DNA of 64,000 nucleotides from an uncultured bacterium (GTDB lineage: Bacteria > Auribacterota > Tritonobacteria > UBA1439): the NCBI GenBank assembly GCA_964460305.1, contig CAYWRA010000002.1, positions 3,089-67,088 of the forward strand, written 5' to 3'. Each line of letters opens with the position of its first letter. Position 1 is the stretch's first letter. This document shows positions 3,000 through 14,088 of this stretch, in pieces. The position numbers and the translations under genes are program-made. Below the pieces are notes generated by a model that made no database searches, had not been told where the DNA came from, and saw only the letters and a program-made list of their open reading frames with translations.

Positions 3000-3017
3000 T
3001 TGTGAATGTTTTCACAA
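3000..3017. promoter_or_regulatory. Candidate Rex operator (TTGTGAATGTTTTCACAA)
   Basis: This is a perfect 18-bp palindrome matching the Rex consensus TTGTGAAnnnnTTCACAA. It lies 64 bp upstream of the rex start codon. Confidence 0.6.
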
Positions 3018-3042
3018 AATAATGTTGCCATTCATGGGGACA

Positions 3043-3058
3043 GTGATATACTTATCAC
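3043..3058. promoter_or_regulatory. Second palindrome GTGATATACTTATCAC with adjacent TTGTGAA half-site
   Basis: The palindrome lies just upstream of the rex ATG. A TTGTGAAAAAAGG half-site sits at 3062-3074. Confidence 0.35.
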
Positions 3059-3080
3059 TTATTGTGAAAAAAGGAACAAT

Positions 3081-3719
3081 ATGCTTGCCAAACGAAATTG
3101 TGTTATCCGGCTTTCTCGATATAAGAGCGTGCTTTATCGCTTGCGTGACCTGGGTTTTGTGCGGGTCTTTTCGGATAATCTGGGCGACGCCATAGGGGTT
3201 ACGGCATCGCAGGTGAGAAAGGATTTCTCCGTCTTCGGCATTACCGGCAACCGCAAAGGCGGTTATGAGGTATCTTATCTGATTGAAAGATTGAACGAGA
3301 TCCTGGGCAAAAACAGGGTCGAGAAGGTGATCATCGTTGGCGCCGGCCATCTCGCTTACGCGCTTATGCACTACGGCGGTTTCGAAAAGGAGGGAATAAA
3401 GATAGAGGCCGCTTTTGACATAGATCCCTCCAAATATGACCGGCAAGCTCCGATCCCCGTCCTGCCGGTGGAGGAGATGAAGGGATTTGTTTCCTCAAGG
3501 AACATAAAGGTGTGCGTCCTGGCCGTCCCCGAGGTTGCGGCCCAGCGCGCGGCCGACAGCATTTTCGCCGCCGGGATCAAGGGGATCCTGAATTTTGCGT
3601 CGATTATGCTGAAGGCGCCGGACGATTGCTCCGTCACCAACGTCAATCTTGAGATGGAGTTGGAGAACCTCATCTATTTCATGAATCTTCTAGGGCAGGA
3701 AAAGAAAAAGGAACAGTGA
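3081..3719 (+). CDS. rex: Redox-sensing transcriptional repressor Rex
   Basis: The product contains an N-terminal winged helix, VIRLSRYKSVLYRLRDLGF, and a Rossmann GxGxxG motif, VIIVGAGHLAYAL. The stop codon overlaps the hydB start. Confidence 0.8.
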   Translation: MLAKRNCVIRLSRYKSVLYRLRDLGFVRVFSDNLGDAIGVTASQVRKDFSVFGITGNRKGGYEVSYLIERLNEILGKNRVEKVIIVGAGHLAYALMHYGGFEKEGIKIEAAFDIDPSKYDRQAPIPVLPVEEMKGFVSSRNIKVCVLAVPEVAAQRAADSIFAAGIKGILNFASIMLKAPDDCSVTNVNLEMELENLIYFMNLLGQEKKKEQ

Positions 3720-5884
3720 TGACGACCCCACTCGACATCGTAAAGAGGAAACGCGCGGAGGCGGTTGACCGCATACACAGCAGGGGTTATCTCGCCCAGA
3801 GGCGCGTGCACGTCGGCATGGCAACGTGCGAGATAGCGGCGGGCTCGCAGGACGTGATGGACGTTTTTCAGGAAGCGATCAAGAAGGGGCTGACCGGCGT
3901 CCACATAAGCCAGAAAGGGTGCGCGGGCCGGTGTAATTACGAGCCGACCGTGGAGGTGATCGAGGACGGCAAGCTCCCGGTGAAATACGGACGGGTCACG
4001 AGCGAGATGGCCCGCCAGATCGTCGAGCGGCACCTGAAAAAGGGCGAGATCATCAAGGAATGGCTGATCGGCTGGACGGGAAAAAGAAAAAGGGCGGCGC
4101 GGGAATACGTCATTACCCTCTGTGAAGGACCTTCCTGCATTCGCCAGAAATTACGGTATTTAAGGACCGCCATCGAAAAAGAGATCGCCGGACTGGGTTT
4201 GTCGGATAAGGTACGCCTCAGCATATCCGGATGTTTGGGCATGTGCAAACATGGGCCGGCGATGATCATTAATCCGCCCCATACCGTCTACGGCAACGTT
4301 AAGGCGGAAGACGTCCCGGAACTCATAAGATCGCACATCCTGAATAAAAAGCCGCTCACCCGCCTTATGGTCGAAGAGGAGCACCTGTGCAACAAATTCC
4401 TGAGGGTATTCGGGGACGTCAATTTTTTCGGCAAGCAGATGCGCATTGTGCTTCGGAATTGCGGAATCATAGATCCGGAGAATATCGATGATTATTTATC
4501 GGTACGGGGATATGAGGCGCTTGCAAAGGTGTTGACAAGGATGTCTCCGCAGCAGGTCATCGCGGCGGTGAAGAAATCGTGCCTGCGCGGAAGGGGCGGG
4601 GCCGGCTATCCCACGGGGGCCAAATGGGAGCTCGCCGCCAGTGGAGAGAGCAAAGAGAGATTCGTCATCTGCAACGCCGATGAGGGCGATCCGGGGGCGT
4701 TCATGGACAGGAGCGCCATAGAAGGGGATCCCCACACGATTATAGAAGGGATGATCATAGGGGGCTATGCGGTGGGGGCATCCAGAGGAATCGTTTACAT
4801 CCGGGCGGAGTATCCGCTGGCGGTCAAGAGGCTGCAGATGGCCATCGCCGACGCGAAGCGCGAGGGCTTCCTCGGGGAAAACATCCTGGGCGCCAATTTT
4901 TCGTTCACCATCGAGATACGGTTGGGAGCGGGCGCTTTTGTATGCGGCGAGGAGACGGCGTTGATCCATTCGATCGAGGGGCATCGCGGCATGCCGCGGC
5001 CGCGCCCGCCTTACCCGTCGGTGCAGGGGCTGTTCGACAAGCCGACGCTGATCAACAACGTCGAGACCTGGGCGAACGTCCCGGTGATCATTATCGAGGG
5101 GGCTGAATGGTTCAGCTCCATCGGCACGCAAAAAAGCAAGGGCACAAAGGTATTCGCCCTGGCGGGCAAAATCAATAATACGGGGCTTGTGGAAGTGCCG
5201 ATGGGGACGACGCTTCGTGAAATCATCTACGATATCGGCGGCGGGATGCCGGATGGAAAGAAATTCAAGGCGGTTCAAACCGGAGGCCCTTCAGGGGGGT
5301 GCCTCTCGGAGGAATATCTGGATACCCCGATCGATTATGAATCGCTGGCCAAGGCGGGCTCGATCATGGGGTCGGGGGGGATGATCATCATCGATGAAGA
5401 TTCGTGCATGGTAAACATCGCAAAATTTTTTTTGGAGTTTACCCAAAATGAATCCTGCGGCAAATGCACCCCCTGCAGGGAGGGGACGAAAAGGATGCTT
5501 GAGATCCTCACCCGCATCACCGAGGGGAAGGGCGAGGAGGGAGACGTCGGGAAGCTGGAGCGGCTCGGCATGATGATCAAGAAGGCGTCCCTCTGCGGCT
5601 TGGGGCAATCGGCGCCGAACCCGGTCTTAAGCACCATCAAAAACTTCCGCGCGGAGTACGAGGAGCACATCAAGGACAAGAGGTGCCGGGCGCATTATTG
5701 CGATGCGCTTCTGGAATACGAAGTGAACGATTCATGCGTCGGATGCGGGGCATGCAGAAAGGCGTGCCCGTCCGGGGCCGTTTCGGGAGCCCCGAAGAGC
5801 AGGCATTCGATCGACAAGGCGAAATGCATCCGGTGCGGCGTTTGTTATAAAAAATGCAAATTCAAAGCGATCGACAGGCGGTAG
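3716..5884 (+). CDS. hydB: [FeFe]-hydrogenase NADH-binding flavoprotein subunit (NuoF-like HydB)
   Basis: The product has N-terminal thioredoxin-like 2Fe-2S domains, a NuoF 51-kDa core with the SLCGLGQ region, and C-terminal 2x[4Fe-4S] ferredoxin motifs, CVGCGACRKACP and CIRCGVCYKKC. Confidence 0.8.
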   Translation: MMTTPLDIVKRKRAEAVDRIHSRGYLAQRRVHVGMATCEIAAGSQDVMDVFQEAIKKGLTGVHISQKGCAGRCNYEPTVEVIEDGKLPVKYGRVTSEMARQIVERHLKKGEIIKEWLIGWTGKRKRAAREYVITLCEGPSCIRQKLRYLRTAIEKEIAGLGLSDKVRLSISGCLGMCKHGPAMIINPPHTVYGNVKAEDVPELIRSHILNKKPLTRLMVEEEHLCNKFLRVFGDVNFFGKQMRIVLRNCGIIDPENIDDYLSVRGYEALAKVLTRMSPQQVIAAVKKSCLRGRGGAGYPTGAKWELAASGESKERFVICNADEGDPGAFMDRSAIEGDPHTIIEGMIIGGYAVGASRGIVYIRAEYPLAVKRLQMAIADAKREGFLGENILGANFSFTIEIRLGAGAFVCGEETALIHSIEGHRGMPRPRPPYPSVQGLFDKPTLINNVETWANVPVIIIEGAEWFSSIGTQKSKGTKVFALAGKINNTGLVEVPMGTTLREIIYDIGGGMPDGKKFKAVQTGGPSGGCLSEEYLDTPIDYESLAKAGSIMGSGGMIIIDEDSCMVNIAKFFLEFTQNESCGKCTPCREGTKRMLEILTRITEGKGEEGDVGKLERLGMMIKKASLCGLGQSAPNPVLSTIKNFRAEYEEHIKDKRCRAHYCDALLEYEVNDSCVGCGACRKACPSGAVSGAPKSRHSIDKAKCIRCGVCYKKCKFKAIDRR

Positions 5885-5893
5885 GAGATCGAC

Positions 5894-7669
5894 ATGTCCA
5901 AGCAGATTACCATATATATAGATAAAAGGCCCTACGTGGTGGAGGACGGGCAAACCATCATGCAGGCCGCCGATAAGCTGGGGTATCACATCCCCAGGCT
6001 TTGTTATCATCCCAAGCTCTCTCTCGAAGGCGCCTGCCGCGTCTGCATCGTGGAAGTGGAGGGGATGAACAATTACGTGGCAAGTTGCGCCTATCCGGTA
6101 ATCGACGGGATGAAAATACGCACCCATACCAAAGAGCTCAGGACCGCGCGGCGCGACATCGTCGAGCTGATCCTCAACAATCATCCCGACGACTGCCATA
6201 CCTGCGAGCGGGACGGCATCTGCGAGCTTCAAAACCTGGCGTATGCCATGGGCCTTCGGCACAGGCATTTTGAGGGGGAGAAAAAGCATTATGACAGAGA
6301 CCTTTCATCGGAAGCGGTCATCAGGGACCCGAATAAATGCATTCTCTGCGGAAGATGCGTGCGCATCTGTTCCGAGATCCAAAAGGTGACCAATCTGGGA
6401 TATGCCTATCGCGGGTTCAAAACGGTGGTTATCCCGGCATATGACATGCCTTTCAGCGAGAGCGTATGCACGGCTTGCGGACAATGCATCAACGTTTGCC
6501 CCACCGCCGCCTTTGTGGAAAAAAACAACTCCCAGGAACTTTTCGAGAAACTGCAGGATGATAGTCTCCTCAAGGTCGTTCAGTTCGCCCCATCGGTGCG
6601 CGCGGCTATCGGCGAGGCTTTCGGCTTCGAGACGGGGACGGGTAAGGAGCGCGAAACAACGGCGGCCCTGCGCCGGTTGGGTTTCGACTACGTCTTTGAC
6701 ACGCAGCTCTCAGCCGACCTGACGATCATGGAAGAGGCGAGCGAATTCTTGGAGCGACTGAAGGGCAATGGGAAGCTGCCCATGCTCACCTCCTGCTCCA
6801 GCGCGTGGATGAAGTGCATGGAACAGTTTTACCCTGACCTCATTGAAAACGTCTCGACCTGTAAATCCCCCATGTCCATGATGGGAACCCTGTTTAAAAC
6901 GTATTTTGCCGACAAGGTCAAGACCGACCCGGCTAAGATTTTGAGCGCAGCGGTCATGTGCTGTACGGCAAAGAAGTTCGAGGCGGCGCGGCCGGAGCTT
7001 AAAGTGAACGGCATGCGAGCGGTGGATATCGTCATCACGACGAGGGAGCTTGCGTGGATGATCCGGTCCGCGGGGATCGATTTCGTCAATATCAAGGGGG
7101 AGGATTTCGATAAGCCGCTCGGTTTCTCGAGCGGCGGCGGCTCGATATTCGGGGCCACAGGCGGCGTTATGGAATCCGCGATACGGACCGCGTACGAGAT
7201 GTCGACGGGCGAGCCCCTGATGGAGATCGAGATCGGGGCGCTCCGCGGCTTCAGCGGGATCAAGGAGGGTGTGATCGATTTCGGCGGCACGGAGATACGC
7301 GTAGCGGTCGCGCACGGTCTAGGCAATGCCCATACGCTTCTCGAAAGGGTCCGCGCGAATCCGGGGCTTTATCACTTTATCGAAATCATGGGCTGCCCCG
7401 GCGGGTGCATCGGCGGGGGAGGACAGCCGTATGCGGATTCGAATTCCCTTCCGCTGGATGAGGAAGTGCTCAAAAAACGCGCACAGGCGCTTTACGATCT
7501 CGACAGGCACAAGACCATCCGCAGGGCCCACAATAATCCGGACATACGCAGGCTATACAAGACGTTTCTCGGAAAGCCGCTCGGAGAGAAAGCGCACGAG
7601 TTATTACATACACATTATAAACCCAGGCTGCCGCGGGGCATCGTGCCGCGTGAGTTGACCAGCCGATGA
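5894..7669 (+). CDS. hydA: [FeFe]-hydrogenase catalytic subunit HydA (M3 type) with a variant L1 motif
   Basis: The N-terminus has a 2Fe-2S ferredoxin, a His-ligated cluster HPDDCHTCERDGIC, and 2x[4Fe-4S] motifs CILCGRCVRIC and CTACGQCINVCP. The H-cluster motifs are L1 TSCSSAW (canonical TSCCPxW), L2 MCCTAKKFE, and L3 EIMGCPGGCIGGGGQP. A TAGGAGA ribosome-binding site is present. Confidence 0.85.
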   Translation: MSKQITIYIDKRPYVVEDGQTIMQAADKLGYHIPRLCYHPKLSLEGACRVCIVEVEGMNNYVASCAYPVIDGMKIRTHTKELRTARRDIVELILNNHPDDCHTCERDGICELQNLAYAMGLRHRHFEGEKKHYDRDLSSEAVIRDPNKCILCGRCVRICSEIQKVTNLGYAYRGFKTVVIPAYDMPFSESVCTACGQCINVCPTAAFVEKNNSQELFEKLQDDSLLKVVQFAPSVRAAIGEAFGFETGTGKERETTAALRRLGFDYVFDTQLSADLTIMEEASEFLERLKGNGKLPMLTSCSSAWMKCMEQFYPDLIENVSTCKSPMSMMGTLFKTYFADKVKTDPAKILSAAVMCCTAKKFEAARPELKVNGMRAVDIVITTRELAWMIRSAGIDFVNIKGEDFDKPLGFSSGGGSIFGATGGVMESAIRTAYEMSTGEPLMEIEIGALRGFSGIKEGVIDFGGTEIRVAVAHGLGNAHTLLERVRANPGLYHFIEIMGCPGGCIGGGGQPYADSNSLPLDEEVLKKRAQALYDLDRHKTIRRAHNNPDIRRLYKTFLGKPLGEKAHELLHTHYKPRLPRGIVPRELTSR

Positions 7670-7691: not shown

Positions 7692-8201
7692 ATGCCATGC
7701 TCCATAAAAACCGAAGACACGCGCAAGACCGAATTAAGGGATTATCTTGGCGGCCTTAAAGGTGTTGAGCGGTCGGAGTCGAACCTGATCGCCGTTTTGC
7801 ATAGGGTCCAGGAGATCTATGGATATCTGAGCAGGGAAGCGCTGGATGAAGTGGCCCTGAACATGAACATTCCGACTGCGCACATCTGGGGGGTCGCCAC
7901 ATTTTACCATTATTTCAAACTCAAGAAGCCGGGGAGGCACGTTATCTCGATCTGCCTGGGGACCGCCTGCTACATCAAAGGTGTTAAAGAAATATTGGAG
8001 AAATTGCGGGAGGAGCTGAACGTCGATATCGGAGGGGTTAGTCCCGACGGTTTGTTCGGCCTGGAGGAGGCGCGCTGCCTCGGGGCATGCGGCCTAGCGC
8101 CGGTGATGATGATCGATGGCAAGATCTTCGGCACACTGACCGCGAAAAGGGTTTCCGAGATCCTTCAGGAATACCGAAAGCGCGCCGAAAAGCAACCATG
8201 A
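7692..8201 (+). CDS. hydC: [FeFe]-hydrogenase NuoE-like 2Fe-2S subunit (HydC)
   Basis: The product has the thioredoxin-like [2Fe-2S] motifs CLGTACYIKG...CLGACGLAPV. Its stop codon overlaps the hydG start (ATGA). Confidence 0.75.
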   Translation: MPCSIKTEDTRKTELRDYLGGLKGVERSESNLIAVLHRVQEIYGYLSREALDEVALNMNIPTAHIWGVATFYHYFKLKKPGRHVISICLGTACYIKGVKEILEKLREELNVDIGGVSPDGLFGLEEARCLGACGLAPVMMIDGKIFGTLTAKRVSEILQEYRKRAEKQP

Positions 8202-9571
8202 AGCACATCGATGAAGCAAGGATAAACGATCTGATTGAATGCGCCGGCAAGACGAGCGAAGCCGGGATCGATCGCATTCTTGCCAAGTCACGTTCGCTGA
8301 AGCGGCTGACGCTTGAAGAGGCGGCCGTTCTCCTTGCGACGGAGGACAGGGCGCTCTCGGCCCGGATTTTCGAAGCGGCGCGTTTTGTCAAAGAGGCGGT
8401 CTACGGAAGGCGCGTCGTGCTTTTCGCTCCGCTTTATATCAGCAACCACTGCGTCAATAAATGCCTTTACTGTGGATTCCGCTCGGACAATAAAGCAACC
8501 AGGCGGCGGAAGCTGGGTATCGAGCAGATACGGCAGCAGGCGCGTTGGCTCCTCGCGCGCGGCCACAAACGCATATTGATGGTCGCCGGAGAGGAGGGCG
8601 GGAGCGCGGACTACTACGTAGAGGCAATGAACGCCATCTATGAAGAACGCGTCGGCGCGCATCGGGTAAGACGAATCAACGTAAACTGCGCGCCGCTTGA
8701 AATAAGTGAATTCAGGAAGTTGAAAGCCGCCGGCATCGGCACGTATCAGGTATTCCAGGAAACGTATCATGAGGCGACATACCGCGCCGTGCATCCGGCG
8801 GGCCCCAAATCCGATCCGGACGGTCGTATTGACGCGATCGACCGCGCCTGCGAGGCGGGAATAGACGATATGGGCATGGGGGTTTTATACGGCCTTTATG
8901 ATTACCGCTTCGAGACGCTGGCGTTGCTTTCTCACGTCGAGTGCCTGGAAAAACGCCATGGTTTCGGCCCGCATACGATTTCTGTCCCGAGGATAGAACA
9001 TGCCGCAGGCACGGAATTCAGGGTTCCTCATCCGGTATCGGATTTTGATTTCAAGAAAATAGTCGCCACTCTCAGGCTCTCCGTTCCATATACGGGGATG
9101 ATACTATCCACTCGCGAGACGCCGGCTTTGCGGGATGAGCTATGTAACCTCGGCATATCGCAGATAAGCGCTGAATCCAGAACGTCTCCGGGAGGATATT
9201 CTTCGGACGACAACAATGCCGATAGCGACGTTCAGTTTTGCGTAGGCGACCAGCGCAGCCTGGATGAGATGGTCGGCATCCTTATAGGCAAGGGGTATAT
9301 ACCCAGTTTTTGCGCCGCATGTTACCGCCGGGAGCGCACCGGGCGCGCTTTCATGAACCTGGCAAAACCGGGATTGATCAAACACAAGTGCAGCTTCAAC
9401 GCGCTGGTGACTTTAAAAGAATACCTGGACGACTTCGCTTCCGCCGGCGTCAAAGAGGCCGGTTATGGCTTAATAGGGAAAGCGCGGGAAAGCCTGAACG
9501 CAGAGGCGCAGTTTGAATTAAGCGCGCTTTTCCGTGAGATTGACGAGGGGGCGAGGGATCGTTATGTCTGA
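8198..9571 (+). CDS. hydG: [FeFe]-hydrogenase maturase HydG (radical SAM)
   Basis: The product has the radical SAM motif CVNKCLYCGF and the C-terminal CxxCx22C motif CAACYRRERTGRAFMNLAKPGLIKHKC. Confidence 0.8.
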   Translation: MKHIDEARINDLIECAGKTSEAGIDRILAKSRSLKRLTLEEAAVLLATEDRALSARIFEAARFVKEAVYGRRVVLFAPLYISNHCVNKCLYCGFRSDNKATRRRKLGIEQIRQQARWLLARGHKRILMVAGEEGGSADYYVEAMNAIYEERVGAHRVRRINVNCAPLEISEFRKLKAAGIGTYQVFQETYHEATYRAVHPAGPKSDPDGRIDAIDRACEAGIDDMGMGVLYGLYDYRFETLALLSHVECLEKRHGFGPHTISVPRIEHAAGTEFRVPHPVSDFDFKKIVATLRLSVPYTGMILSTRETPALRDELCNLGISQISAESRTSPGGYSSDDNNADSDVQFCVGDQRSLDEMVGILIGKGYIPSFCAACYRRERTGRAFMNLAKPGLIKHKCSFNALVTLKEYLDDFASAGVKEAGYGLIGKARESLNAEAQFELSALFREIDEGARDRYV

Positions 9572-10655
9572 GGCGGTTGCGGTGCTTGACGACATAATGA
9601 AGAAGGTTTACGAATTTCCCGGCGAGAGCCGTGAAGAAATCGAGCAACTCCTTTTATTGGAGGATAACGCCAGGATAGAGCGCCTGTTTTCATTCGCCGA
9701 TAAAGTGCGGCGTAAATTCATGGGTGACGGGGTCCTCTTGAGGGGGATAGTGGAATTCTCCAACCGCTGCTCGAACACCTGTTTCTATTGCGGCCTGAAT
9801 GAGAGGAACTCCGGCATCGAGCGTTACGTAATGAGCATCGATGCAATACTCGGAGCCGTCGGCGTCTTGAGCTCGGTGAAAATAAAAACGGTGGTCTTGC
9901 AGTCGGGCGAGGATGAATGCCTCGATCCCCTCTGGCTCGCCCGCCTTATCGGAGAGATAAAGAAAAACCACGGCCTGGCCGTCACCCTTTCCGTCGGCGA
10001 GAAATCCCGCGATGAATATAAGCTATGGCGTGAAGCGGGAGCGGACAGGTATCTGTTGAAAATCGAGACGACAGACCCTCAAGTTTATTCCGCCGCCCAC
10101 GACGGCAGGCGGTTGGCGGCGCGATTAAAATGCCTCGATGACCTCATCGATCTTGGGTACCAGACTGGTTCGGGAATGTTGATCGGGTTAAGGGGGCAGA
10201 CCGTCGGTTCCATAGCCAGGGATATTTTATATCTCAAAGAGAAAGAATTCGACATGATCGGGATAGGCCCTTTCGTTCCTCATTCGGGCACCGTTTTCGC
10301 AAACGATCCCGCAGGGGACGTCAGGTTGACGCTAAAGGCCCTGGCAATAACCCGCCTGGTTACAAAGAATGCGCATATACCGGCGACGGCGGCGATGGGG
10401 AGCATCGGCGGGCACGATTACAGGGTGGACGGGCTTAAAGCCGGCGCTAACGTCCTGATGCCGAATTTCACTCCCATGAAGTATAGGAAATTGTATGAGA
10501 TATACCCGGGGAGGATTTGCATAAACGAAGCCCACGGGGCGTGTGTATCGTGTATGGGCGCAAAAGCGGCATCAGCCGGGCGGTTTATAGATTATTCGGC
10601 GGGCCATTCGCTTAAAAAACACCGGGCGCTGAACCCTGGAGGAGAAAATGAATAG
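9564..10655 (+). CDS. hydE: [FeFe]-hydrogenase maturase HydE (radical SAM)
   Basis: The product has the radical SAM motif CSNTCFYCGLN. The start overlaps the hydG stop (ATGTCTGA). Confidence 0.75.
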   Translation: MSEAVAVLDDIMKKVYEFPGESREEIEQLLLLEDNARIERLFSFADKVRRKFMGDGVLLRGIVEFSNRCSNTCFYCGLNERNSGIERYVMSIDAILGAVGVLSSVKIKTVVLQSGEDECLDPLWLARLIGEIKKNHGLAVTLSVGEKSRDEYKLWREAGADRYLLKIETTDPQVYSAAHDGRRLAARLKCLDDLIDLGYQTGSGMLIGLRGQTVGSIARDILYLKEKEFDMIGIGPFVPHSGTVFANDPAGDVRLTLKALAITRLVTKNAHIPATAAMGSIGGHDYRVDGLKAGANVLMPNFTPMKYRKLYEIYPGRICINEAHGACVSCMGAKAASAGRFIDYSAGHSLKKHRALNPGGENE

Positions 10656-11871
10656 CACACCTCTTAGCAACAGATTGCACATAGGCATTTTCGGCAGAAG
10701 GAACGTCGGCAAGTCTTCTCTCATAAACGCCCTCACCGGCCAGGCGGTGGCTATAGTTTCCGAACTCCCTGGTACTACGACGGACCCCGTTCATAAGGCC
10801 ATGGAGATACACGAGATAGGCCCGGTGGTGGTGATAGATACCGGCGGGCTTGACGACGCCGGCGCGGTCGGGGCAATGCGCGTCAAGAGCGCGTACAAGG
10901 TGCTTGCCAAAACGGACGTTGCGCTACTCGTCGCGGACAGGAGCGAGCCACTTGGGCCGTGCGAGCGCGATTTTATAAACGAAATTGAAGCGAGGCGGAT
11001 CCCGGTAATCATAGTCGTAAACAAAACGGACGAGGGAAGCCCCGATAACCGGCTGATGAGCGAAATTAGTTCGCTGAAGCTTCACCATGTATGTACAAGC
11101 GCGCTCACGGGTAAAGGCATGGCGGAGCTGCGCGGCAAGATAGTCGAGTGTACGCCCAATGATTACGAGAGGAAAACCATCTTAAGCGATCTTCTGTCTC
11201 CCGGGAGCCTTGTGCTTATGGTGGCGCCTCTCGACATGGAAGCCCCGAAAGGGCGTCTCAAGCTTCCACAGGTCCAGACCATCAGGGACATTCTCGACAA
11301 TAATTGCTCCGTCCTTATGACCAAAGAAACCGGGCTGGAAAGGGAGCTCAACACCCTCCGGAAACCGCCGGATCTCGTTATCACCGAGTCACAGGTTCTT
11401 AGCGCCGTCGGGGCGGTTCTTCCCCCCGACATTCCCCTTACGACATTTTCCATTTTATACGCCAGGTACAAATGCGAGTTGGATACGCTCCTCCGCGGGG
11501 CCGAGGTAATAGACGAGCTGACCCCGGCTTCGAAAGTTCTTGTCGCCGAAGCCTGCACGCATCACCCCATTGGGGATGATATCGGGAAAGTCGTTATCCC
11601 AGGGCTACTTAATTCCAGGTTCCCAGGGATCAGTATCGAGCATGTTTCCGGCTTTGATTTTCCGGCTTCTCTGGACGGTTATTCCCTCGTTATCCACTGC
11701 GGCGGTTGCATGATAAACCGGAGGGAGATGATGGGAAGGATGGCCGCCGCCGCGGGGGCTTCCGTCCCGATTACGAATTACGGGCTCTTTCTCGCCCATA
11801 TGCACGGCATGCTCGACCGGGTCACAGCGCCATTCGGTCGCTTAGCCGGCATGACGAAATCGATTGCATGA
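10648..11871 (+). CDS. hydF: [FeFe]-hydrogenase maturation GTPase HydF
   Basis: The product has a P-loop, GRRNVGKSSLINALTG, and the C-terminal cluster-binding motifs CTHHP and HCGGC. The start overlaps the hydE stop. Confidence 0.8.
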   Translation: MNSTPLSNRLHIGIFGRRNVGKSSLINALTGQAVAIVSELPGTTTDPVHKAMEIHEIGPVVVIDTGGLDDAGAVGAMRVKSAYKVLAKTDVALLVADRSEPLGPCERDFINEIEARRIPVIIVVNKTDEGSPDNRLMSEISSLKLHHVCTSALTGKGMAELRGKIVECTPNDYERKTILSDLLSPGSLVLMVAPLDMEAPKGRLKLPQVQTIRDILDNNCSVLMTKETGLERELNTLRKPPDLVITESQVLSAVGAVLPPDIPLTTFSILYARYKCELDTLLRGAEVIDELTPASKVLVAEACTHHPIGDDIGKVVIPGLLNSRFPGISIEHVSGFDFPASLDGYSLVIHCGGCMINRREMMGRMAAAAGASVPITNYGLFLAHMHGMLDRVTAPFGRLAGMTKSIA

Positions 11872-12690: not shown

Positions 12691-14088
12691 TTAATTACTT
12701 GCCTTCCAGGATGAAACGCAACTCACCCGGCGATCGTATTCCCTTGAAAGGAGGAGTGCGACGAAGAACCAGCAAACAAGAAGCACCCCGGAAAATACAC
12801 TTGCAAAAGTGACATACAGAGCAAAACCGACAGCCGCATCGCCGGCGCGCGTCTGAAAAACTTTAAGCAAAGCGTTGACGCCCGAGCCGCCCGCCTTGGC
12901 GCTGCGCGCGCCGAACATTTCAATCCACGCCTGGGTTTTGTACTTGGCGGCCGGAGAAGTGGGAATATAGAGTTGTTTTAAGGAGGGGGAGTTAAGGGCG
13001 TAATTGAGCGCTTTGCCGGCCACCATGATCCAGAAAAGCAGAACGAGCGAGGGAGTCAATTTGAAACCTATTACCATTATCCCGATCACGAATGGCATCG
13101 CGCACATGGCCGTTTTCATCCCGAGGCGGCGCTGCACGTTGCCGATACCCAGTGCAAGGCACAAAAACGTTACCGTATTCACCGCAGTGCCGTAGTCACC
13201 AAGCAATGACGCCGTAGCCTGATGACCGACGGCGTTTTGAAACACAAGCCGCTTGAAATTGAAATCAAATATTGTAACGATCACTTCGTAAAAAGCTATG
13301 ACCAGAAATATACCGAGCAGATAGCGGTCCCTGACCAACAGCCGCAGCCCTTCGGTAAGACCGGCTCCGCCCTCTCCGCTGGTTTGCGGCAAACGCGCCT
13401 CTTTTACGGGCGCTGGAACGGATTGCCGCGCTAATCTCATGGCGAACTGGCGAATTATCATCACTATGGCCAGCGTGCTGACTGCGCATATTGCCACCAG
13501 AGGCGCACAACTGTGGAAACCCAGCAGTGCCGGCAAATCAGTCGACTGCGGGCCCAAAATCCCGCCGACCTGGCCGAACATGACGATCAACGGGAAGGCT
13601 TTTTTCGCGCATTCGGCGTCGATTGAATCCGAGGCATATGCCCAGAACAACGCGATCATCAGCGACCCGTAAAGCTCAACAAAGACATACCACGCCCAGC
13701 CGATCCACCGGTCCGTAGCGGCCATCGTATTAGCCAGCCCCAGCGTCGGATGGACGAACAAAAAACTGAAAACAAGCAGACCGCATGCCAGAAATCCGCC
13801 GATCACGTTAAAAAGCGACTGCCTCTTGACCCGGTCCACCAGACGGCTATAAAGCATTATCATGGGAATCAATACGCAAACGGAGAGTATCTTTGCCCAT
13901 GCCAGCGGCGAAGCATCCTTATGCCGGCCGTCACCGATTATAAACGCCTTGAATAACGCGTCCTTTAACGGCCGCAACGTCCAGTAAGTGCCGATGATCA
14001 GGGCGAAGGCCGCTCCCAGCAGCAGGGCGCGGATGATTTCTTCGCGCGTAAAATCTCCATACCATTTTGCCAGTAATCGCTTAATCAA
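12691..14088 (-). CDS. TLC-family (ATP/ADP translocase, Npt-like) nucleotide transporter homologue
   Basis: The product has the TLC N-terminal motif YWTLRPLKDALF (compare Rickettsia Tlc YSTLRSIKDSLV). It also has IGWAWYVFVELYGSLMIALFWAYASDSIDAECAKKAFPLIVMFGQVGGILGP, matching the TLC FAELWGS...LFWxFAN...EAKRFY core. About 12 TM helices are predicted. Confidence 0.65.
   Translation of the reverse strand: MIKRLLAKWYGDFTREEIIRALLLGAAFALIIGTYWTLRPLKDALFKAFIIGDGRHKDASPLAWAKILSVCVLIPMIMLYSRLVDRVKRQSLFNVIGGFLACGLLVFSFLFVHPTLGLANTMAATDRWIGWAWYVFVELYGSLMIALFWAYASDSIDAECAKKAFPLIVMFGQVGGILGPQSTDLPALLGFHSCAPLVAICAVSTLAIVMIIRQFAMRLARQSVPAPVKEARLPQTSGEGGAGLTEGLRLLVRDRYLLGIFLVIAFYEVIVTIFDFNFKRLVFQNAVGHQATASLLGDYGTAVNTVTFLCLALGIGNVQRRLGMKTAMCAMPFVIGIMVIGFKLTPSLVLLFWIMVAGKALNYALNSPSLKQLYIPTSPAAKYKTQAWIEMFGARSAKAGGSGVNALLKVFQTRAGDAAVGFALYVTFASVFSGVLLVCWFFVALLLSREYDRRVSCVSSWKASN

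Follow-up and report, generated by a model that had tools for sequence, protein, structure and literature searches.

The hydA gene and its operon

The window analysed here (the whole stretch of 64,000 nucleotides, from contig CAYWRA010000002.1 of an uncultured bacterium in the lineage UBA1439, Auribacterota) contains the gene of an M3-type [FeFe]-hydrogenase catalytic subunit, HydA, in a cluster with rex, hydB, hydC, hydG, hydE, and hydF (Table 1). The hydA frame runs without frameshift or stop through the L1 motif (ACC TCC TGC TCC AGC GCG TGG). In a phmmer search against the sequences of the Protein Data Bank (PDB), L1 aligned without gaps to three solved enzymes (E = 7e-175 to 1e-126), namely HydA1 of Thermoanaerobacter kivui (TSCCPSW), CpI of Clostridium pasteurianum (TSCCPGW), and HydA1 of Acetobacterium woodii (TSCSPGW). 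The numbering of the H-domain equals that of CpI plus two; Ser302 occupies the position of the cubane ligand Cys300 of CpI, Cys301 that of the proton-relay residue Cys299, and Ser303-Ala304 replace Pro301-Gly302. All ligand cysteines of L2 and L3 are retained, with Cys357 as the cubane ligand of L2 (CpI Cys355). However, the canonical MPC of L2 is changed to MCC by the presence of Cys356 in place of the proline (CpI Pro354), which creates a tandem pair with Cys357, and in L3, Gly500 replaces the usual alanine (CpI Ala498).

A preliminary description of the locus, made from the sequence alone, had already reported an uninterrupted TSCSSAW with serines in place of the ligand cysteine and the proline, the retention of the relay cysteine and of the ligand cysteines Cys357, Cys501, and Cys505, and a hydBAC-hydGEF context. 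Each of these readings is borne out by the alignments to the three solved enzymes or by the Pfam and NCBIfam matches of the six gene products. L2 was also copied correctly as MCC, but its departure from the canonical MPC, and with it Cys356, was overlooked.

The domain make-up of HydA corresponds to the complete M3-type architecture. In addition to Fe_hyd_lg_C (PF02906, 292 bits) and Fe_hyd_SSU (PF02256, 87 bits), Pfam recognises Fer2_4, NADH-G_4Fe-4S_3, and two Fer4 domains; the N-terminal [2Fe-2S], the NuoG-like [4Fe-4S], and the 2x[4Fe-4S] sites of a HydABC-type subunit are all present, as are the adjacent HydB and HydC. The protein exceeds the cut-offs of the NCBIfam models NF040763 (HydABC-type, "A6"; 813.9, cut-off 765) and TIGR02512 (485 bits, cut-off 406). 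Among the motifs that define group A, L3 (ExMxCxxGCxxGGGQP) is matched by EIMGCPGGCIGGGGQP, with invariant Cys501 and Cys505, and L2 (MPCxxKxxE) is matched at Met355, Cys357, Lys360 (the lysine directed to the distal CN), and Glu363, with Pro to Cys356 as the sole change. The proton pathway is represented by counterparts of C299, E279, S319, E282, and R286 of CpI. Only L1 deviates from TSCCPxW, because the ligand cysteine next to the relay residue and the proline are replaced by Ser302 and Ser303. TSCCPxW is no strict hallmark of HydA in group A, given that the active enzyme of A. woodii shows the same deviation at the ligand position. An assignment to group B is contradicted by the L1 sequence, which is not TSCCCP, and by the low score with TIGR04105 (B1; 157 bits, cut-off 450).

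A model of HydA predicted with AlphaFold2 (AF2; predicted local distance difference test, pLDDT, 84; predicted template modelling score, pTM, 0.85) resembles the solved structures 8A6T_A and 7Q4W_A with template modelling (TM) scores of 0.91–0.95. L1, L2, and L3 are each placed with high confidence at a strand-to-helix turn, with pLDDT values of 85–94 around L1 and L2.

Several lines of evidence bear on the functionality of the protein. C301, E281, E284, R288, K360, E363, M499, C357, C501, C505, A232, and P233 are invariant across the alignments, and S321 and M355 are nearly so (at least 90%). The gene is under strong purifying selection: relative to L001, which is the nearest of the genome loci (85% identity at the amino-acid level), the proportion of non-synonymous differences (pN) is 0.088, whereas that of synonymous differences (pS) is saturated at 0.855. 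Given this selection and the Rex-controlled hydB-hydA-hydC-hydGEF operon, HydA most likely serves in an active HydABC hydrogenase, a view that the preliminary description had offered as a possibility and that agrees with the conservation of the H-cluster pocket and the proton pathway. It is unlikely that the protein is degenerate or sensory. The sensory hydrogenases of groups C and D (HydS) are marked by the loss of the relay cysteine, by a PAS or another signalling domain at the C-terminus, and by association with regulators, whereas HydA has Cys301, lacks a PAS or other sensory domain (Pfam), and is encoded next to HydB, HydC, and the maturases.

Table 1. Coordinates of the hydrogenase operon and of the motifs of HydA, in positions of the window.
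Feature	Position	Strand	Basis and remarks
Rex operator, perfect palindrome TTGTGAATGTTTTCACAA	3000..3017	+	Pattern search, zero mismatches; upstream of the operon and of the probable rex start
rex, redox-sensing (NADH/NAD+) transcriptional repressor	3006..3719	+	NCBIfam Rex, 222 bits (cut-off 138)
hydB, NuoF-like flavoprotein subunit	3716..5884	+	Pfam Complex1_51K, NADH_4Fe-4S, 2Fe-2S_thioredx (128-205), SLBB, Fer4 (671-718)
hydA, M3-type [FeFe]-hydrogenase catalytic subunit, 591 aa	5894..7669	+	Pfam, NCBIfam, AF2 model
L1 motif TSCSSAW (T299 S300 C301 S302 S303 A304 W305)	6788..6808	+	Translation, alignment
L2 motif MCCTAKKFE	6956..6982	+	Translation, alignment
L3 motif EIMGCPGGCIGGGGQP (ligand Cys501, bridging Cys505)	7382..7429	+	Translation, alignment
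hydC, NuoE-like [2Fe-2S] subunit	7692..8201	+	Pfam 2Fe-2S_thioredx, 160.8 bits
hydG, radical-SAM (S-adenosylmethionine) H-cluster maturase	8087..9571	+	TIGR03955, 476 bits (cut-off 312)
hydE, radical-SAM H-cluster maturase	9534..10655	+	TIGR03956, 309 bits (cut-off 255)
hydF, H-cluster maturation GTPase and scaffold	10648..11871	+	TIGR03918, 510 bits (cut-off 326); Pfam HydF_dimer, HydF_tetramer

The operon begins with a gene for Rex, in which Pfam recognises the domains Put_DNA-bind_N and CoA_binding. A search for Rex boxes with up to three mismatches yielded four matches in the window (1.6 expected from shuffled sequences), and the operator listed in Table 1 is the sole perfect one. The true start of rex is probably the ATG at 3081; the match to the Rex family begins at residue 30. 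A weaker Rex site is located at 3062-3079. The stop codon of rex overlaps the start of hydB (3716-3719), which, together with the perfect operator near the start of rex, suggests that the predicted rex-hydBAC-hydGEF operon is autoregulated and responsive to NADH.

HydB consists of an N-terminal thioredoxin-like [2Fe-2S] domain, a flavin mononucleotide (FMN)/NADH module, and a C-terminal ferredoxin domain with 2x[4Fe-4S]. Its domain content resembles that of bifurcating enzymes. For HydC, all matches to NCBIfam models of the HoxE/NuoE type remain under the curated cut-offs. The listed open reading frame (ORF) of hydG overlaps hydC by 115 bases; because the match to the HydG family begins only at residue 37, the real start of hydG is probably located further downstream. 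The small overlaps of hydG with hydE and of hydE with hydF are consistent with translational coupling.

The gene order Rex, HydB, HydA, HydC, followed by HydG, HydE, and HydF, recurs in related loci of several phyla. At nearly all of them, hydB is syntenic with hydA, and in at least 20 related loci the three maturase genes follow directly, as they do here. No second hydrogenase that might be an alternative client of HydGEF was found among the large ORFs of the window. An ORF of 465 amino acids on the reverse strand (12691-14088), located directly after the hydrogenase operon, matches the TLC family of ATP/ADP transporters (PF03219, E = 2e-19). Nucleotide importers of this type are typical of host-dependent bacteria.

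A clade with coupled changes in L1 and L2

The sequence signature of HydA is shared by a large and widespread group of homologs. The 120 closest ones (at least 73% identity, many labelled as Omnitrophota) all combine TSCS[SA]AW with [M/I]CC in L2. After the addition of 80 genome loci, the dataset comprised 173 sequences with TSCS[SA]AW/MCC and 28 sequences with TSCSPGW/MPC, mostly from Bacillota. A further search, seeded with the HydA of locus L041, contributed another 94 sequences with TSCSSAW/MCC and increased the total to about 267. The carriers among the initial 173 include Omnitrophota (with the complete genome of Candidatus Velamenicoccus archaeovorus LiM), Planctomycetota, Endomicrobiia, Raymondbacteria, Fibrobacterota, Spirochaetales, and Marinamargulisbacteria. 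Among the cluster representatives, the highest score (2064 bits) was that of P0121, a predicted protein of 4122 amino acids with seven separate HydA-like stretches, which may have arisen by fusion or repetition or may reflect an artefact of assembly or gene calling.

Within this clade, the residues in question show almost no variation. Ser302, Ala304, and Cys356 are invariant in all of the 173 sequences, and position 303 is either Ser (158) or Ala (15). Ser302 and Cys356 remain invariant across the entire set of about 267 sequences, which diverge to about 57% identity. Cys356 is the sole invariant extra cysteine that is specific to the clade; the 28 relatives with TSCSPGW have proline, not cysteine, at this position. 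The exchange of Pro-Gly for [SA]A in L1 and that of Pro354 for Cys354 (CpI numbering) in L2 covary without exception, with zero hybrids in more than 300 sequences. No description of the coupled signature of TSCS[SA]AW and MCC was found in the literature, and it is in this coupling that the remaining novelty resides.

The preliminary description had suggested that nearby cysteines might substitute for the missing ligand, but neither of the two candidates is a conserved and specific feature of the clade. The residue in WMKC (Cys308) varies among its members (Cys in 121, Tyr in 29, Phe in 15, Ala in 3, and Asn in 3). The residue in STCKSP (Cys323) gives way to Ala or Thr in 11 of the 173 sequences, and it is present also in TSCSPGW relatives and in A. 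woodii, which do not have the SSAW/MCC signature.

The HydA of locus L041 has TSCSPGW/MPC and is 73% identical to that of the window. The search seeded with this protein recovered sequences of 76–92% identity to it that fall into three states: 94 with TSCSSAW/MCC/MGC, four or five with TSCSPGW/MPC/MGC, and ten with TSCCP[GA]W/MPC/MAC. The canonical and the intermediate (TSCSPGW/MPC/MGC) HydAs of this group comprise P0393, P0406, P0417, P0432, P0434, P0448, P0452, P0459, P0473, and P0493 and those of the loci L041 and L043. In a neighbour-joining tree from which the motif columns had been removed, the sequences with TSCSPGW/MPC and TSCCPGW/MPC form one subclade that is nested among the MCC-type sequences of Phycisphaerae. 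Bootstrapping (100 replicates) supports the monophyly of this subclade with 94% and its placement among, and not beside, the core MCC-type sequences with 75%; the core clade, which unites the subclade with the MCC-type sequences to the exclusion of the outgroups and of L049 and P0122, two deeper branches of the MCC type, is supported with 100%. Parsimony favours an apparent stepwise reversion from SSA|C|G via SPG|P|G to CPG|P|A (L1, L2, and L3 residues, respectively). Also in the nested subclade, the changes in L1 (PG/[SA]A) and L2 (P354/C354) occur together.

A wholesale import of the canonical motifs from a distant paralogue appears unlikely. In a sliding-window comparison, P0393 is 57–92% identical to its MCC-type neighbour but only 28–65% identical to canonical HydAs of the outgroup. 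The divergence peaks at residues 281–380, and a short conversion tract around L1 may be present in the revertants. Only a few, clustered positions distinguish the MCC type from its nested relatives (234, 302–304, 306, 307, 311, 356, and 500). In this closely related subclade, Gly500 occurs with Ser302 and Ala500 with Cys302. The association of Ser300 with Gly498 (CpI numbering) holds only there; a strict general link was rejected, because A. woodii and several cluster representatives combine the serine with Ala, Thr, Cys, or Ser at position 498.

Residue 234 (6593-6595) corresponds to Ser232 of CpI, which forms a hydrogen bond with the proximal CN ligand. It is Ser in all sequences with TSCSSAW/MCC and Ala in the nested TSCSPGW/TSCCPGW relatives and in most TSCSPGW sequences of Bacillota, and thus covaries with the state of L1 and L2. 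At three loci, a second HydA is encoded a few kilobases from the MCC-type one (L009, 18164-19924; L022, 6046-7767; L044, 1782-3557). Two of these additional HydAs have TSCSPGW/MPC and one has the canonical TSCCPGW, which documents that different types of ligand sphere coexist in one genome.

Proposed ligation of the cubane by serine or by a relocated cysteine

The replacement of the L1 ligand by serine, which the preliminary description had considered unusual, is already documented as a natural variant that is both widespread and functional. In HydA1 of A. woodii (PDB 7Q4V), Ser301 replaces the cysteine ligand of the cubane of cluster A1; the enzyme is active, and the serine has no apparent effect on its Fourier-transform infrared (FTIR) signature (Katsyv et al. 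2023, PMC10021017). According to Kertess et al. 2017 (PMC5855289), about 20% of the putative hydrogenase sequences have serine at this position. It is present also in 15 of 118 neighbouring clusters of 50% identity, whereas the remaining 103 have cysteine; the 118 are those among the 150 best cluster representatives that are complete and possess the relay cysteine and the other three ligand cysteines. The variant TSCSPGW was noted as early as 2013 in a genome paper on Melainabacteria, where it was treated as a deviation from the motifs required for function (PMC3787301). This was the only paper found in a full-text search for "TSCSP"; a search for "TSCSS" retrieved no paper on hydrogenases, and a serine ligand of the H-cluster was encountered in the hydrogenase literature only in Katsyv et al. 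2023. The exchange of Cys for Ser is therefore frequent and known from an active group, an outcome that the preliminary description itself had named as refuting its proposal.

By analogy with A. woodii, it is moderately probable that the HydA of the window is a working HydABC-type subunit with a Ser302-ligated cubane and a coupled remodelling of the second sphere that includes Cys356. HydA would then be the catalytic subunit of an NADH-linked and probably also ferredoxin-linked [FeFe]-hydrogenase that is matured by HydG, HydE, and HydF, the products of the genes directly downstream, and transcriptionally controlled by Rex. As a member of a large natural lineage with serine in L1, comparable to HydA1 of A. 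woodii with its Ser301, the protein would hold its [4Fe-4S] cubane by Cys357, Cys501, Cys505, and the oxygen of Ser302, whereas Cys301 would still pass protons on to the diiron site. That Ser302 does not vary among about 267 divergent members would be expected of a residue that continues to serve at the level of a ligand. The second, coupled remodelling, by which the Pro-Gly that caps the L1 helix is replaced by Ser/Ala-Ala and the proline before the L2 ligand by Cys356, may represent a single packing and hydrogen-bonding unit. The removal of two prolines would free two backbone N-H groups, and a thiol would be placed beside the serine-bound iron. Such a unit would stabilise or tune the Ser-ligated cubane but would not replace the serine. 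Serine alone can suffice, because both the close relatives with TSCSPGW/MPC and A. woodii have it without an extra cysteine.

Several observations weigh against this interpretation. When Cys115 of CrHydA1, the HydA1 of Chlamydomonas reinhardtii, was replaced by Ser, Ala, or Asp, each variant lost most of its cubane and all activity, and C115S took up no [2Fe] cofactor (PMC5855289). It follows from this failure that the serine is tolerated only in a suitable background, and it could be precisely the invariant Cys356 that compensates, by ligating iron. An extra cysteine directly before another ligand cysteine (P354C or A498C) is present in 4 of the 15 Ser-type but in only 1 of the 103 Cys-type cluster representatives (Fisher p = 8e-4, uncorrected for phylogeny). 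Moreover, 115 of 120 "group A6" relatives from Clostridia (P0127, P0271–P0389) combine TSCSPGW with E-x-M-C-C-x-G-G-C in L3 (CpI A498C). HydAs of the Ser type have thus gained tandem cysteines at least twice and in different motifs, possibly in compensation for the lost cysteine. In addition, the searchable literature yielded no biochemical study of any member of the TSCSSAW/MCC clade.

The same observations form the basis of the strongest alternative, which we regard as doubtful but worth considering. Cys356 itself would be the fourth ligand of the cubane, resulting in an all-cysteine cluster held by Cys356-Cys357, Cys501, and Cys505. Hydrogen bonding would be the sole reason for the retention of Ser302, and the exchange of Pro-Gly for Ser/Ala-Ala would loosen L1 sufficiently to permit this arrangement. 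The gain and loss of the invariant Cys356 in lockstep with the change in L1, directly beside the serine, would be readily explained, as would the inability of C115S to hold a cubane. The geometry is chemically possible, because cluster N2 of complex I, a [4Fe-4S] cluster, is ligated by two consecutive cysteines. However, Ser302 is as invariant as Cys356, although the loss of its role as a ligand should have led to some replacement by Ala, Gly, or Thr across this divergence. Serine without an extra cysteine is, moreover, found in the functional enzyme of A. woodii and in the conserved HydAs of the nearest TSCSPGW/MPC relatives. The MCC in L3 occurs also with a normal TSCCP (in P0262 and in one of the 120 relatives of P0127), which indicates that an added cysteine is not necessarily a ligand. 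On balance, it seems unlikely that the L1 ligand of the cubane was relocated to the tandem cysteine of L2 throughout the TSCS[SA]AW/MCC clade, with Ser302 reduced to a hydrogen-bond partner.

The remaining explanations are weaker than either a Ser302-ligated cubane with a remodelled second sphere or a relocated ligand. It is quite improbable that the changes serve a protective or regulatory function, whereby a TSCS loop rendered flexible by the absence of Pro-Gly would allow Cys301 or Cys356 to bind reversibly to the diiron site or the cubane, resulting in an inactive state protected from oxygen or redox changes like the Hinact state of CbA5H from Clostridium beijerinckii. The changes are indeed located in the loop of the proton-relay cysteine and remove its only proline, and the literature connects this loop and extra cysteines (TSCCCP, group B) with stability towards O2. 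The position has also been targeted experimentally, as documented by the crystallised G302S variant of CpI (7QHF), although a literature search on S357T/G302S provided nothing useful. Yet the carriers live as strict anaerobes in habitats without oxygen, and the alanine at position 304 is less flexible than glycine.

Even less credible is a degenerate, non-catalytic HydA-like protein that would act as a sensor or as a pure electron-transfer subunit without a normal H-cluster. One canonical ligand cysteine is indeed missing, the equivalent mutation is lethal to the activity of CrHydA1, and TSCSPGW has been counted among the deviations from functional motifs (PMC3787301), but the conservation of all other residues of the H-cluster and the proton pathway, the downstream maturase genes here and in the related loci, the strong purifying selection, the lack of a PAS or sensory domain, and the activity of the Ser-type enzyme of A. 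woodii (PMC10021017) all argue against it. An artefact, whether by misalignment (considered in the preliminary description, with a cysteine at the true ligand position), frameshift, or sequencing error, is of negligible probability; no point in its favour was found, the ungapped alignment confirms the serine in a continuous frame, and the motif is shared by about 267 sequences that come from independent assemblies, among them a complete genome (L048) and isolates.

These results have consequences for the annotation of [FeFe]-hydrogenases. A serine in L1 is neither a novelty nor the sign of a dead enzyme and should not be annotated as such, and pipelines or papers that require TSCCP for a "functional" hydrogenase will misjudge many HydABC enzymes (15 of 118 clusters in this study; about 20% in the literature). 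Because the same exchange destroys CrHydA1, the coupled residues of the clade are candidates for the features that render an H-cluster with serine viable or that tune its potential or catalytic bias. The HydAs with TSCCPGW/MPC/MAC, TSCSPGW/MPC/MGC, and TSCSSAW/MCC/MGC, which are about 76–92% identical, provide a natural series of three states. If the ligand had been relocated, this series, in which the nested revertants change to TSCSPGW/MPC and then to TSCCPGW/MPC, would document the process on a scaffold of approximately 80% identity, and together with the clostridial clade with tandem cysteines in L3, it would imply that [FeFe]-hydrogenases repeatedly rewired which loops hold the cubane. 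Direct tests are feasible with cultured carriers, namely Anaerobaca lacustris, an isolate of Anaerohalosphaeraceae, and the enrichment of Ca. Velamenicoccus archaeovorus. For A. lacustris, no physiological evidence of H2 production was found in the accessible papers.

Comparison with known systems

HydA1 of A. woodii, the catalytic subunit of an electron-bifurcating HydABC complex (PDB 7Q4V, 7Q4W, 8A5E), agrees with the HydA of the window in its M3 architecture and in having HydB and HydC as partners. The two proteins share the serine at the ligand position of L1 (Ser301 in the TSCSPGW of A. woodii), the relay cysteine, and a cysteine at CpI position 321, and they match at the level of both sequence (phmmer E = 2.8e-157) and structure (TM-scores 0.92–0.93). 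They differ in that A. woodii has Pro-Gly, MPC, and MAC, whereas the HydA of the window has Ser-Ala, MCC, and MGC, and their identity in the structural alignment is only 43%. The best match among the solved enzymes is HydA1 of T. kivui (8A6T), which belongs to the same type of complex (E = 7e-175, TM-scores 0.91/0.95, 46% identity). By contrast, all of its motifs are canonical, with TSCCPSW in L1, MPC in L2, and Cys299 as the cubane ligand.

Among the further relatives, the "group A6" HydAs of Bacillota (Dorea, Faecalimonas, Mobilisporobacter, and Thermoanaerobacteraceae; L054–L080) have TSCSPGW/MPC/MGC. They resemble the HydA of the window in the serine of L1, the glycine before the first cysteine of L3, the neighbouring HydB and HydC, and the name of the matching NCBIfam model. 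However, they have kept the Pro-Gly of L1 and the proline of L2, are only 48–54% identical, and are often encoded in the order hydC-hydB-hydA. The clostridial clade around P0127 likewise combines a Ser-type L1 with an extra cysteine directly before a ligand cysteine of the cubane, but the additional residue is located in L3 (CpI A498C) instead of L2, Pro-Gly is kept, and the identity is about 44–49%.

Two further systems may be compared. The C115S variant of CrHydA1 (Kertess et al. 2017, PMC5855289) carries the same exchange of Cys for Ser, but it was engineered into a canonical background, whereas Ser-type enzymes in nature are conserved, with activity established for at least one of them. 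The group B enzymes with TSCCCP (CpIII and ToHydA) are similar in that an extra cysteine near the H-cluster defines a subgroup. In their case, however, the insertion of the cysteine in L1 leaves the four ligand cysteines in place, whereas in the HydA of the window, L1 loses and L2 gains a cysteine.

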